This document shows, piece by piece, positions 2,499 to 29,590 of a stretch of DNA of 64,000 bases (position 1 is its first letter; every line of letters starts with the position of its first letter). The notes below the pieces were generated by a model. That model was given only the letters and a program-made list of their open reading frames with translations, was not told where the DNA came from and did no database searches. The position numbers and the translations under genes were made by a program. The stretch is from Escherichia coli (GTDB lineage Bacteria > Pseudomonadota > Gammaproteobacteria > Enterobacterales > Enterobacteriaceae): assembly GCF_003018255.1 (NCBI RefSeq), contig NZ_CP027440.1; one strand, given 5' to 3'.

Positions 2499-4040
2499 TC
2501 AAAGCGTTGCTATCCAGCCCATTTGCATAAACCATTCGGTTACAGGGGCAAGCGTAAACTCGACGCAAAGTAGTCCGACGAGTGTCAGGACGAGGGTGTA
2601 AGGCAGGGCCATCCACACCATGCGGCCATAAGAGAGGCGAATCAATGGCGCGAGTGCAGAGGTCAGCAGGAACAGGAACGCAGCCTGACCGTTCGGCGTA
2701 GCGACAGAGGGCAGATTGGTACCGGTATTAATGGCGACCGCCAGCAGCTCGTATTGCTTCAACGTGATAGCGCCACTTTCCATTGCCGCTTTCGCTTCGT
2801 TGATATAAATCGTCCCCACGAAGACGTTATCCGAAATGGATGACAGCAGACCGTTGAAAATATAGAACAGCGACAGCTGAGCATGTTCCGATGCCTGCAA
2901 CACAAACTGAATAATCGGCGAAAACAGTTGTTGGTCGATAATCACCGCGACTACCGAGAAAAACACCGTCAACAGTGCGGTGAATGGCAGAGATTCGGTG
3001 AAGGCTTTACCGATAGCATGTTCATCGGTGACACCGGTCAATGATGTCGCCAGAATAATGACTGACAAACCAATCAAGCCAACTTCCGCCAGATGCAACG
3101 CCAGCGCAGTCACCAGCCAGACGCCAATAATCGCCTGGACAATCAGACGGATTTTATCCTGACGGGTACGCTGGTGGCGGCTTTGATCGTCAAACTGTTG
3201 CAGTACTTCGCGGACTTTCTCCGGCAGCGTTTCACCATAGCCAAACCAACGCAGCTTCTCTACCAGCAGGCAGGTTAACAGGCCACAAATCAGAACCGGA
3301 ACGGTCACTGGCGACATGCGCAGGAAGAAATCGCCAAAATGCCAGCCAGCCGCTTTAGCGATGATCAGGTTCTGTGGTTCGCCCACCATGGTCATTACGC
3401 CGCCTAATGCGGTGCCGACACCGGCATGCATCATCAGGCTACGCAGAAAGCCACGGAACTGTTCCAGAACCACTTTGTAATGCTTGTCGATATGACTATC
3501 GTCTTGCAGGTCGGTATCTTCGGTACGGGAAGAGGCTACGCGGTGATAAATCCCATAAAAACCGACTGCAACGCTGATCACCACCGCCACGACGGTTAAG
3601 GCATCGAGGAACGCGGAGAGGAACGCCGCCGCCACGCAAAAAGAGAGCGACAGCAGCATTTTGGAGCGAATGCTTAACAGCAAACGGGTAAATATGAACA
3701 GCAACAGCTGTTTCATAAAATAGATACCCGCCACCATAAACATCAGTAACAGCAAGACTTCAAGATTTGCCGCCACCTCTTCACGGACGTGTTCCGCGCT
3801 GGTCATGCCGATGAATACCGCTTCGATAGCCAACAGGCCACCGGGGAGTAGCGGGTAGCATTTCAGGGCCATCGCCAGAGTGAAAATAAATTCCGCTACC
3901 AGCAACCAGCCAGCGACGAAAGGGCTGATGAGGAAAATTAACGGATTTACGATTAAGAAAATGATGAGGGCGAGTTTGTACCAGTCGGGGGACTGGCCCA
4001 AAAAATTGCGCCATAACGCGCGGCCCCAGGAGATCTCCAT
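2499..4040 (-). CDS. nhaB: NhaB Na+/H+ antiporter
   Basis: Polytopic membrane protein recognised as NhaB; start trimmed to [13 protein letters not shown] (513 aa) from the 531-aa track ORF. Confidence 0.9.
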
Positions 4041-4261
4041 GATGGTTTCCCTTACCTTACAAATAATCAATGATGTTTTTATGTTTAAACGCAAAGCTTA
4101 ACGGTCAGGCAGGAGTGAGGCAAGTCTTGATAGTCAAGGGTAAAGAGATGCGGAAAATGAAGCCTTGATCCCTTTTTTCTTCTTTTTGTCTGCTATCAGC
4201 GTAGTTAGCCCTCTGGTATGATGAGTCCAACTTTGTTTTGCTGTGTTATGGAAATCTCACT

Positions 4262-26175: not shown

Positions 26176-28095
26176 ATGAGTAGCGCTTTTAACAACGATG
26201 GTCGGGACATATCTCCCTTAATTGCAACCTCCTGGGAGCGATGCATTAAGCTGATGAAACGGGATACATGGAACGTACCACACCAGGCCCAGGGCGTGAC
26301 ATTTGCGTCTATTTATCGGCGTAAGAAAGCGATGCTGACGCTCGGGCAGGCTGCGCTGGAAGATGCCTGGGAATATATGGCACCGCGAGCGTGTGCGCTG
26401 CTTATCCTCGATGAAACCGCCTGCATTCTCAGCCGTAATGGCGATCCGCAAACCTTGCAGCAACTAAGTGCACTGGGATTCAATGACGGCACGTATTGCG
26501 CCGAGGGAATTATTGGTACTTGTGCGCTATCGTTAGCGGCTATCTCTGGTCAGGCCGTGAAAACGATGGCCGATCAACATTTCAAACAGGCACTCTGGAA
26601 CTGGGCCTTTTGTGCAACGCCGTTGTTTGACAGCAAGGGCCGATTGACGGGAACAATAGCGCTGGCGTGTCCGGTTGAGCAAACTACCGCAGCTGATTTG
26701 CCGTTGACGTTGGCAATCGCACGCGAGGTCGGAAATTTACTGCTGACGGACAGTTTGCTCGCTGAAACTAACCGTCATTTAAATCAACTTAATGCCCTGT
26801 TAGAAAGTATGGATGATGGCGTGATTAGCTGGGACGAGCAGGGTAATTTGCAATTTATTAATGCCCAGGCGGCGCGGGTCTTACGCCTTGACGCGACGGC
26901 AAGTCAGGGACGGGCAATCACTGAACTCTTAACGTTACCCGCCGTATTGCAACAAGCAATAAAACAGGCACATCCGCTCAAACACGTAGAAGCAACCTTT
27001 GAAAGCCAGCACCAGTTTATTGATGCGGTGATAACCCTTAAACCGATAATAGAAACGCAGGGAACCAGCTTTATTTTGTTGCTCCATCCTGTGGAACAGA
27101 TGCGGCAGTTAATGACCAGTCAATTAGGAAAAGTCAGCCATACTTTCGCTCATATGCCACAAGAGGATCCGCAAACCCGCCGTTTGATTCATTTTGGTCG
27201 CCAGGCGGCGCGCAGTAGCTTTCCTGTCCTGCTTTGTGGAGAAGAGGGCGTGGGCAAGGCACTGCTAAGTCAGGCAATTCATAATGAAAGTGAGCGTGCA
27301 GCAGGGCCTTATATCGCCGTCAATTGTGAGTTATATGGTGATGCGGCGCTGGCGGAAGAATTTATTGGCGGCGATCGCACGGACAATGAAAATGGTCGTT
27401 TGAGTCGACTGGAACTGGCGCACGGCGGCACGCTGTTTCTTGAAAAGATTGAATATCTGGCGGTGGAGTTACAGTCTGCTTTGCTTCAGGTTATCAAGCA
27501 GGGTGTTATCACGCGACTGGATGCGCGGCGTTTAATACCCATTGATGTCAAAGTGATTGCCACAACGACCGCGGACCTGGCAATGCTGGTGGAACAAAAT
27601 CGTTTTAGTCGCCAGCTGTATTACGCGCTGCATGCATTTGAAATTACCATCCCGCCTCTGCGTATGCGGCGTGGCAGCATTCCGGCGCTGGTGAATAACA
27701 AATTACACAGTCTTGAAAAACGCTTCTCTACGCGGCTGAAAATTGATGACGATGCCCTCGCTCGCCTGGTTTCCTGTGCATGGCCTGGCAACGATTTTGA
27801 ACTTTACAGCGTCATCGAGAATCTTGCTCTGAGTAGTGATAACGGGCGCATTCGCGTCAGTGATTTACCTGAACATCTCTTTACCGAGCAGGCGACAGAT
27901 GATGTCAGCGCCACTCGCCTTTCCACCAGTCTGTCATTTGCGGAAGTTGAAAAAGAGGCAATTATTAACGCAGCCCAGGTCACAGGCGGTCGCATTCAGG
28001 AAATGTCGGCTTTACTTGGAATCGGCCGCACTACGCTGTGGCGGAAAATGAAGCAACATGGCATTGATGCAGGGCAGTTTAAGCGCCGTGGATAG
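26176..28095 (+). CDS. dhaR: DhaR, sigma-54-type AAA+ transcriptional activator of dhaKLM
   Basis: 639-aa ORF with GAF/PAS N-terminal region, an AAA+ core with a degenerate Walker A (GEEGVGKAL, Thr replaced by Ala) and a C-terminal Fis-type HTH; divergent from dhaK. Confidence 0.9.
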   Translation: MSSAFNNDGRDISPLIATSWERCIKLMKRDTWNVPHQAQGVTFASIYRRKKAMLTLGQAALEDAWEYMAPRACALLILDETACILSRNGDPQTLQQLSALGFNDGTYCAEGIIGTCALSLAAISGQAVKTMADQHFKQALWNWAFCATPLFDSKGRLTGTIALACPVEQTTAADLPLTLAIAREVGNLLLTDSLLAETNRHLNQLNALLESMDDGVISWDEQGNLQFINAQAARVLRLDATASQGRAITELLTLPAVLQQAIKQAHPLKHVEATFESQHQFIDAVITLKPIIETQGTSFILLLHPVEQMRQLMTSQLGKVSHTFAHMPQEDPQTRRLIHFGRQAARSSFPVLLCGEEGVGKALLSQAIHNESERAAGPYIAVNCELYGDAALAEEFIGGDRTDNENGRLSRLELAHGGTLFLEKIEYLAVELQSALLQVIKQGVITRLDARRLIPIDVKVIATTTADLAMLVEQNRFSRQLYYALHAFEITIPPLRMRRGSIPALVNNKLHSLEKRFSTRLKIDDDALARLVSCAWPGNDFELYSVIENLALSSDNGRIRVSDLPEHLFTEQATDDVSATRLSTSLSFAEVEKEAIINAAQVTGGRIQEMSALLGIGRTTLWRKMKQHGIDAGQFKRRG

Positions 28096-28131
28096 CGGGA
28101 GAGTATGTACTTTCCCGCTATGAATTGCTAA

Positions 28132-28308
28132 TTAATAGCGACCATGACTGCCGTGATTTGGTCCACCATTTGAAGGTGGCATTGGCTTACCGGAGGGCGC
28201 AGGACCACGAGGGCCATCGCTGTGGCGGTGATGATGGTGGGGAACACAAGCACTTAACAGGCTCGCAAAGACAATTGCTAACAGGCTGAAGGTAAATGTT
28301 TTTTTCAT
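28132..28308 (-). CDS. Small putative lipoprotein, His/Pro/Gly-rich (58 aa)
   Basis: MKKTFTFSLLAIVFASLLSAC with an LSAC lipobox, then CVPHHHHRHSDGPRGPAPSGKPMPPSNGGPNHGSHGRY; sits in the dhaR-ychF gap where I recall ycgV in K-12. Confidence 0.4.
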   Translation of the reverse strand: MKKTFTFSLLAIVFASLLSACVPHHHHRHSDGPRGPAPSGKPMPPSNGGPNHGSHGRY

Positions 28309-28498
28309 GACAAACTCTTGAACGGTTAATGCACTGTGATTGTTATCACATAAAAGGCACATTGTTAATATTGCCAGGAGTCTGATTATGATTTTCGATA
28401 ACTCAGAATTGAAAGAAGCCGCGTAGCAGGCGTAAAAAAGCCATTATGTGCGACTCACATAATGGCTCATTATTAACCGTCAGGGTATTACGTGGAAT

Positions 28499-29590
28499 TT
28501 AGACGTTGAACAGGAAGTTCATCACATCGCCATCTTTAACGATGTAATCTTTACCTTCTGCACGCATTTTGCCTGCTTCTTTCGCGCCTTGTTCACCTTT
28601 GTAAGTGATGAAATCTTCAAACGAGATAGTCTGTGCGCGGATAAAGCCTTTTTCGAAATCGGTATGGATTTTGCCAGCCGCTTGCGGTGCAGTTGCGCCG
28701 ACGGGGATGGTCCATGCGCGCACTTCTTTCACCCCAGCGGTGAAGTAAGTTTGCAGGTTCAGCAGTTTATAACCGGCACGGATCACACGGTTCAGGCCCG
28801 GCTCTTCCAGTCCCAGTTCCTGCATAAACTCTTCACGTTCTTCATCGTCCAGTTCGGCAATGTCTGCTTCAACAGCTGCACAAACCGGAACCACAACAGA
28901 ACCTTCTTTCGCCGCGATTTCACGCACCTGGTCAAGATACGGGTTGTTTTCAAAACCGTCTTCGTTGACGTTGGCGATGTACATCGTCGGTTTCAGCGTC
29001 AGGAAGCTCAGGTAACGAATAGCCGCTTTTTCTTCTGCGCTTAAATCCAGCGCGCGCAGCATGCCCGCGTTTTCCAGCTGTGGAAGGCATTTTTCCAGTA
29101 CTGCCAGTTCGGCTTTCGCGTCTTTATCGCCGCCTTTGGCTTTCTTCTGTACGCGGTGAATCGCGCGCTCGCAGGTGTCGAGATCCGCCAGTGCCAGTTC
29201 GGTATTGATAACTTCAATATCGTCCGCCGGGTTAACTTTACCGGAAACGTGAATGATATTGTCATTCTCAAAGCAGCGAACAACGTGGCCGATCGCTTCG
29301 GTTTCACGAATGTTGGTCAGGAACTGGTTACCCAGACCTTCACCTTTCGACGCGCCCTTTACCAGACCGGCGATATCGACAAATTCCATGGTAGTGGGAA
29401 GCGTACGCTGCGGTTTTACGATTTCAGCCAGTTGATCCAGGCGAGGGTCAGGCATTGGTACGACGCCCGTGTTCGGCTCAATGGTACAGAATGGAAAGTT
29501 GGCCGCTTCAATACCGGCTTTGGTCAGCGCGTTGAACAGGGTAGATTTCCCGACGTTGGGCAAACCGACGATACCGCATTTGAATCCCAT
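28499..29590 (-). CDS. ychF: YchF, ribosome-associated ATPase/GTPase (Obg family)
   Basis: 363-aa ORF with P-loop GLPNVGKST at the N-terminus. Confidence 0.95.

Follow-up and report, generated by a model that had tools for sequence, protein, structure and literature searches.

The 403-bp spacer between dhaR and ychF in the 64,000-nucleotide stretch of Escherichia coli DNA analysed here (hereafter the window) is judged, from its sequence, to hold a genuine, annotated, and uncharacterised small lipoprotein gene. Taken as a whole, we consider it probable that this is a monocistronic, Escherichia-only prolipoprotein gene whose product would be a disordered, metal-binding outer-membrane lipopeptide, that it would be repressed by CRP, and that it was replaced by ycgV in the K-12-type lineage. 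K-12, BL21, and O157 all lack the gene, which is probably why it has never been studied; a literature search using accessions, locus tags, and the peptide motif retrieved nothing on it.

In the window, dhaR (+ strand) ends at 28095 and ychF (- strand) ends at 28499, thus leaving a spacer of 403 bp (28096-28498), in agreement with the gap of about 400 bp given in the original prediction. The region is 100% identical in E. coli strain JNE23-011. The ORF at 28132..28308 on the - strand translates to MKKTFTFSLLAIVFASLLSACVPHHHHRHSDGPRGPAPSGKPMPPSNGGPNHGSHGRY (58 aa), an exact match to the protein sequence quoted in that prediction, and the corresponding protein is annotated as a CDS in JNE23-011, CFT073, and A37. 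The gene and the parts of its predicted product are as follows.

28132..28308, - strand: small prolipoprotein gene, 58 codons and stop (RefSeq 'hypothetical protein' WP_001311636.1)
28249..28308, - strand: predicted signal peptide, residues 1-20 (MKKTFTFSLLAIVFASLLSA), from a lipoprotein rule match
28246-28257, - strand: lipobox L18-S19-A20-C21, with Cys21 invariant in all orthologues
28135..28248, - strand: predicted mature 38-residue peptide CVPHHHHRHSDGPRGPAPSGKPMPPSNGGPNHGSHGRY, read from the sequence

This ORF had been described as the only one in the spacer, which does not hold as worded: ORFs of 54 aa and 28 aa are also listed on the + strand, as are a 41-aa ORF in another frame of the - strand and a 76-aa extension of the small-gene frame from an upstream ATG. 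What does stand is that it is the sole ORF with a coding signature. The 76-aa form was considered and rejected, as its extension would spoil the signal peptide and its ATG is absent in E. marmotae, making the 58-aa form the conserved one.

The predicted lipoprotein and its coding signature

The N-terminus was compared to a PROSITE PS51257-type lipoprotein rule, {DERK}(6)-[LIVMFWSTAG](2)-[LIVMFYSTAGCQ]-[AGS]-C with at least one K or R among residues 1-7, and to a lipobox criterion of an uncharged hydrophobic h-region followed by [LVI][ASTVI][GAS]C with the Cys at position 15-35. Residues 11-21 (AIVFASLLSAC) match the rule, with K2 and K3 in the n-region, and Cys21 fits as the Cys of the LSAC lipobox that had been proposed; LLSAC is invariant in 10/10 orthologues. 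The UniRef name of the E. marmotae orthologue is 'Lipoprotein'. The AlphaFold2 model has a helix over residues 3-21 and is without secondary structure beyond it, with pLDDT values of 58-66 in the mature part. The 38 residues of the mature peptide include 8 Pro, 7 His, 7 Gly, 4 Ser, and 3 Arg. A His cluster, HHHHRH (H24-H29, 28222-28239), begins three residues past the lipidated-Cys position, Cys21, and a second His pair, H-G-S-H, lies near the C-terminus. HHHHRH is kept in 10/10 orthologues, and both elements of the earlier claim, a run of His and a lipoprotein signal peptide, were confirmed. The Pro/Gly spacer of the mature peptide is conserved as well as the His residues.

Profile searches with the small protein retrieved nothing significant from Pfam-A (best DUF6769, i-E 0.057) or from the PADLOC profiles, and from NCBIfam only a sub-threshold match to the LptM model NF047847 (13.9 bits vs a cut-off of 27.7, residues 1-21). 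No homologue was found in the PDB; the weak matches there (E of at least 0.05) are to N-terminal stretches of unrelated chains and look like the affinity/His-tags of recombinant proteins. An exhaustive HMMER search of 1.84 billion representative proteins retrieved only the Escherichia family itself, and a word-indexed protein search found no homologue outside that family. A 1035-aa database protein (P0027) was rejected as a homologue, being a repetitive artefact in which only the hydrophobic segment matches.

The case that the frame is coding comes from its pattern of change. Across 10 orthologues there are 19 synonymous and 10 non-synonymous changes (76% non-synonymous expected; binomial p=1.8e-6), with 18/29 of these changes at third codon positions, and the sole indel among the orthologues is a 6-nt, in-frame insertion. 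The remaining two - strand frames contain stops and have no synonymous bias (p=0.5-0.9). Between the window and E. marmotae, the small gene has a dN/dS of ~0.03 at a dS of 0.27, similar to neighbouring genes, and the window and CFT073 proteins are identical with 3 synonymous nucleotide differences between their genes. Of 59 full-length matches sampled evenly over the 1297, 57 have the gene annotated as a CDS, and the two genomes without the annotation nonetheless have an intact ORF. These patterns indicate that the reading frame is under purifying selection. The original prediction had called the ribosome-binding site weak and expression therefore doubtful. The site is indeed weak, with a duplex energy to the 16S 3' end of -2.4 kcal/mol, but the purifying selection on the frame speaks for translation of the ORF in spite of it. 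That prediction had also allowed for a frame without conservation in related genomes, and what was found is that the orthologues retain the frame as well as the Cys of the lipobox and the run of His.

A frame open by chance, in a non-coding spacer that owes its conservation to a regulatory DNA element or RNA, would fit the weak Shine-Dalgarno, a 5' flank that is more conserved than the ORF and is the most conserved part of the region, a short, low-complexity protein without homologues beyond the genus, and a second frame open in the 3' half. It fits poorly with a codon periodicity of substitutions seen in the small-gene frame only, with the phase of the one interspecies indel, with a canonical signal peptide and lipobox, and with the lack of any Rfam match or unusual fold, and we regard it as very improbable.

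The second frame mentioned above (28128-28253, - strand, 41 aa) runs open across the 3' half of the small gene. Frameshifted versions of the small protein (database proteins P0006-P0012) switch into this alternative frame at differing points and all end in ...MVAIN at 59 aa. They are rare, with 1-3 contigs each in public assemblies, and could be either genuine pseudogenes or the result of sequencing errors where the His/Pro codons are C/G-rich.

The conserved upstream block and the transcription unit

The sequence around the start of the small gene and the two ends of the spacer contain the following features.

28294..28353, - strand: near-invariant 60-nt block comprising the operator/predicted -10, the 5' UTR, and the first five codons, from the alignment
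28315..28319, - strand: weak Shine-Dalgarno AAGAG, 6 nt before the ATG and inside the invariant block
28335..28350, no strand assigned: perfect palindrome TGTGAT-TGTT-ATCACA (TGTGATTGTTATCACA), which is the CRP core TGTGA-N6-TCACA, from a motif scan
28368-28363 and 28344-28339, - strand: predicted sigma-70 promoter with -35 TTAACA, an 18-nt spacer, and -10 AACAAT, from a consensus scan only
28431..28470, - strand: ychF intrinsic terminator with a 12-bp perfect stem (arms 28439-28450 / 28456-28467), a 5-nt loop, and U6
28092..28121, no strand assigned: hairpin between the convergent 3' ends of dhaR and the small gene, an inverted repeat with 14-nt arms

In an alignment of 8 sequences, 1/60 columns of the 60-nt block are variable, compared to 38/146 in the other non-coding flanks (Fisher p=8e-6). 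Taken as RNA, the block has no unusual fold (z=+0.65), and a structured RNA or sRNA at this position was rejected, the Rfam search also being blank.

The CRP core has a single match in the 64-kb window, against 0.02 expected by chance, and the palindrome is invariant in all aligned Escherichia sequences. Its centre lies ~34-34.5 nt upstream of the small-gene ATG. The predicted -10, which belongs to the only sigma-70-like promoter found by the scan, sits within the palindrome; both the predicted -35 and -10 are conserved, and a patch of the spacer between them (28354-28359) is variable. Functional CRP sites are centred at -41.5, -61.5, and similar distances from the transcription start for activation, or overlap the core promoter for repression. 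With its centre 34.5 nt from the ATG, class I/II activation of the small gene is geometrically impossible, as the start site would fall inside the ORF, and CRP was therefore rejected as an activator of this gene. A standard role as a + strand activator was rejected as well, given that the sole -10-like hexamer places the site near -57. From the overlap with the predicted -10, our guess, among the most speculative steps of the model, is that cAMP-CRP bound there would repress transcription of the small gene (catabolite repression). A function of the palindrome on the other strand is an alternative guess.

We also scanned the upstream region with consensus sequences for the operators of Zur, Fur, NikR, CusR, and other regulators. 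No convincing or conserved operator was detected: the best scores for Zur (12/22), NikR (8/12), and CusR (12/20) were reached by many shuffled sequences. A Fur-box-like match of 14/19 (GTTATCGAAAATCATAATC) at 28384-28402 (- strand) varies at matching positions in other lineages and is probably due to chance.

The ychF terminator has a fold energy of -21.6 kcal/mol (z=-3.7) and is also found in E. albertii. The hairpin between dhaR and the small gene has an energy of -16.5 kcal/mol (z=-6.4), and its stem is retained, with changes, in other species; it is probably a bidirectional terminator, though it is without a U-run. With the ychF terminator on one side and the hairpin shared with dhaR on the other, the small gene appears to be monocistronic.

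Proposed function and comparison to known small lipoproteins

By general lipoprotein biology, the precursor would be exported, after which Lgt would attach diacylglycerol to Cys21, LspA would cleave off the signal peptide, and Lnt would carry out the N-acylation. Under the +2 sorting rule, lipoproteins without Asp at +2 are sent to the outer membrane by Lol, and the Val at +2 here would direct the same transfer. The mature product would then be a 38-residue, intrinsically disordered, His/Pro/Gly-rich outer-membrane lipopeptide. In the other most speculative step of the model, HHHHRH beside the anchor and the C-terminal H-G-S-H would bind Zn, Ni, or Cu in the envelope. We consider the binding of divalent transition metals by the conserved His clusters quite possible, if on balance improbable. 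The evidence that points to it is the His-rich composition and the conservation of that composition; no metal gene is linked to the locus, and with no conserved Zur, Fur, NikR, or CusR operator upstream it is composition that ties the small gene to metal homeostasis.

His-rich segments that capture metals are found in the N-terminus of ZinT/YodA and in the ZnuA loop, and storage proteins rich in His, Hpn among them, are also known. The small peptide resembles these in having His runs and pairs within a flexible segment, which in its case would be exposed in the envelope, and its HHHHRH is effectively a natural His-tag. ZinT, ZnuA, and Hpn are not homologous to it; their His segments either belong to proteins with folded domains or lie in the cytoplasm, and their genes have Zur/NikR operators. 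The small peptide, in contrast, would be lipid-anchored, has no folded domain, and has no such operator detected upstream.

A real lipoprotein with a role other than metal binding would be the main, if rather doubtful, alternative: the peptide, as a small disordered outer-membrane lipoprotein, could bind and modulate some larger machine or sensor of the envelope, much as LptM (YifL) does with LptD, with the His residues serving as a pH-titratable or partner-binding patch. LptM, of the LPS translocon, has the same architecture of signal peptide, lipobox, and Pro-rich, disordered tail of ~40-50 residues, and is likewise very short and monocistronic. The sole NCBIfam match of the small protein, weak and confined to the signal peptide, is to LptM, and both the lack of a metal-regulator box upstream and a Pro/Gly spacer as conserved as the His residues would suit such a role. 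However, the mature part resembles neither LptM nor any other family in sequence, no partner gene is linked to what appears to be a monocistronic gene at a fixed locus, and the most distinctive conserved feature of the peptide is its 7 His in 38 residues, HHHHRH included, whereas LptM has no His cluster. LptM is also widespread in Enterobacterales, unlike the Escherichia-only small gene. The entericidins EcnA/EcnB and other E. coli lipoproteins of <60 aa are similar in size, in having a lipobox, and in being encoded by stand-alone chromosomal genes. The entericidins are amphipathic helices, in contrast to the Pro/Gly/His-rich small peptide, which has no predicted structure in its mature part and no homology to them.

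If expressed, the product would add a small envelope lipopeptide to the core of the ExPEC lineages. It would also offer a clear-cut case of a small protein that is confined to one genus and under selection, with the invariant CRP palindrome as a regulatory handle. No major concept is changed by this; the gene is a reasonable small-protein target in ExPEC strains.

The ycgV arrangement, distribution, and history of the locus

The original prediction placed a 955-aa ycgV at this position in K-12, and took the window to have lost it, with the small ORF in its place. The K-12 arrangement does differ as stated there: in DH5a the slot between dhaR and ychF holds a 99-bp spacer, a 955-aa ycgV, and a 768-bp spacer, a segment of ~3.7 kb not homologous to the window spacer. 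YcgV carries Pertactin and Autotransporter domains, and thus is also an envelope protein encoded at the same slot, but its sequence and size are unrelated to those of the small protein, and the two genes are mutually exclusive at the locus. Absence relative to K-12 therefore stands, and it is the framing as a loss that does not, ycgV more probably having been gained.

About three in four complete E. coli genomes have ycgV at this locus. A published ancestral reconstruction (PMC6896753) reports its absence from all F/G/B2 strains and scores this as loss. Its absence is thus a known lineage polymorphism and is not peculiar to the window strain.

Deletion of ycgV, with the small ORF left over or arisen at the scar, would agree with that reconstruction, with the prevalence of ycgV at the locus, and with the existence of decayed ycgV copies such as the one in HH97, and we nevertheless consider it unlikely. 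The window spacer contains no ycgV remnant and nothing that can be aligned to the K-12 segment; homology between the window and K-12 stops in the last dhaR codon (…KRRG* vs …KRRV*) and resumes at the ychF stop. With zero homology to the K-12 segment, the small ORF was rejected as a leftover of ycgV. No direct repeats flank the small-gene unit as an insertion scar would.

The small gene is found with the same flanks (dhaKLM-dhaR-ORF-ychF-pth) in E. marmotae, E. whittamii, Escherichia sp. E1V33, and one further Escherichia lineage ~91% identical to the window, an arrangement that also counts against deletion of ycgV. In one E. albertii strain (Logan DRR017213), the dhaR-ychF spacer is 160 bp long and contains neither gene, and it matches the window around the dhaR stop, where the hairpin starts, and in the ychF terminator. 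Compared with E. albertii, the small-gene unit (~28105-28433) thus amounts to an indel, and, as the E. albertii junctions are of the window type, those of K-12 are the exceptional ones. Relatives of YcgV are scattered patchily among genera (Citrobacter farmeri at 83%; Leminorella, Morganella, Pragia, and Pantoea at 45-60%), and in Citrobacter farmeri, which has the nearest non-coli copy, ycgV lies at an unrelated locus. The 768-bp ycgV-ychF spacer of K-12 has a GC content of 34%, and an AT-rich flank is typical of acquired DNA.

From the small gene's presence in four non-coli lineages, the E. albertii junctions, the Citrobacter ycgV at another locus, and the AT-rich spacer, the small-gene arrangement is probably the older one in the group of E. 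coli and the cryptic clades, with the ycgV segment as a derived replacement. This polarity rests on one E. albertii strain with an internally deleted dhaR, in a comparison that covers E. albertii, E. marmotae, E. whittamii, E1V33, and one further Escherichia lineage. By this reading the ycgV segment would have replaced the small gene in the lineage leading to K-12-type strains, and the locus would modestly correct the published account of a ycgV 'lost' in F/G/B2, the outgroup junctions pointing to gain by replacement elsewhere. The finding is otherwise one of ordinary strain polymorphism and an orphan small protein, with alternative inserts at one E. coli locus and no new kind of system.

As the small gene is absent from E. 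albertii and from everything beyond, it was possibly born de novo in the dhaR-ychF spacer. Extended to the rest of the model, this gives a tentative and rather improbable account in which a young Escherichia gene, perhaps arisen de novo in the spacer, encodes a lipid-anchored 'His-tag' that would capture or buffer Zn, Ni, or Cu at the outer membrane under catabolite (CRP) control, and which was kept in the lineages of extra-intestinal pathogens (B2/F/G) and overwritten by an acquired autotransporter in K-12-type strains.

A few observations on the alternative spacers are given here. In the E. albertii strain, dhaR is cut to 527 aa by an internal deletion (equivalent to window ~26877-27200), and 81 bp of the 160-bp spacer are unrelated to either E. 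coli arrangement. The K-12-type ycgV-ychF spacer, upstream of ycgV, has a called 59-aa ORF (MYLHNKNNMRHFCITNKKKQKTSIFIFGQWVFWPIVVIVLLVIIFILPAYWSVINFDQL) with one hydrophobic helix that is unrelated to the His-rich gene. In HH97 (locus positions 3083-4154), ycgV has decayed to two pseudogene fragments, and the 130 bp beside ychF form a third, intermediate spacer, ~75% like window 28364-28498 and ~73% like K-12, with its junction at a shared 18-mer (GTTGATATTGCCAGGCGT vs GTTAATATTGCCAGGAGT in the window).

On the searches made, the small gene occurs only in the genus Escherichia. The 403-bp spacer was found in 1297/5426 complete E. coli genomes (~24%), in every case as a single copy next to dhaR. 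Among the genomes that have it are CFT073, UTI89, E2348/69, and ATCC 11775, the type strain, with the main extra-intestinal pathogens included, and the gene is probably also present in ST131-type strains. In ~690 genomes ychF directly adjoins the spacer, and the other ~600 give a shortened match like that of DSM 101139, the one strain of this type that was examined. There, an integrase-bearing island of ~40 kb lies between the ychF 3' end and the small gene, which is intact along with its 5' flank despite the island.

The DSM 101139 island encodes a tyrosine recombinase beside ychF, two DEAD/DEAH helicases, an AAA ATPase, very large hypothetical proteins, RadC, IS1182, and IS3, and its far end carries a second copy of the final 12-13 nt of ychF (GTTCAACGTCTAA). 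Other integrase islands occur at the same ychF 3' end in strains encoding the K-12 YchF protein. With islands at this position in several strains, the ychF 3' end looks like a hot spot at which islands integrate, some of them possibly defence islands. The small gene is also found on five records of 150-540 kb labelled 'non-mobilizable plasmid' (NZ_AP026904.1, CP088398.1, NZ_CP141085.1, CP054248.1, and NZ_CP082081.1), which are probably chromosomal fragments deposited as plasmids.

Additionally, we would like to note that the window's ychF allele is rare: 2/5426 complete E. coli genomes have one at least 99% identical, and 5260 have one at 90-95%. The window is 92-94% identical to CFT073 and K-12 only across ~1.1 kb (28300-29400), compared to 97-100% on either side. 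This stretch, which covers ychF and the small-gene 5' flank, looks like a recombination patch from a non-coli Escherichia, and of the loci compared the closest to the window's ychF patch is that of E. whittamii, at a dS of 0.17.
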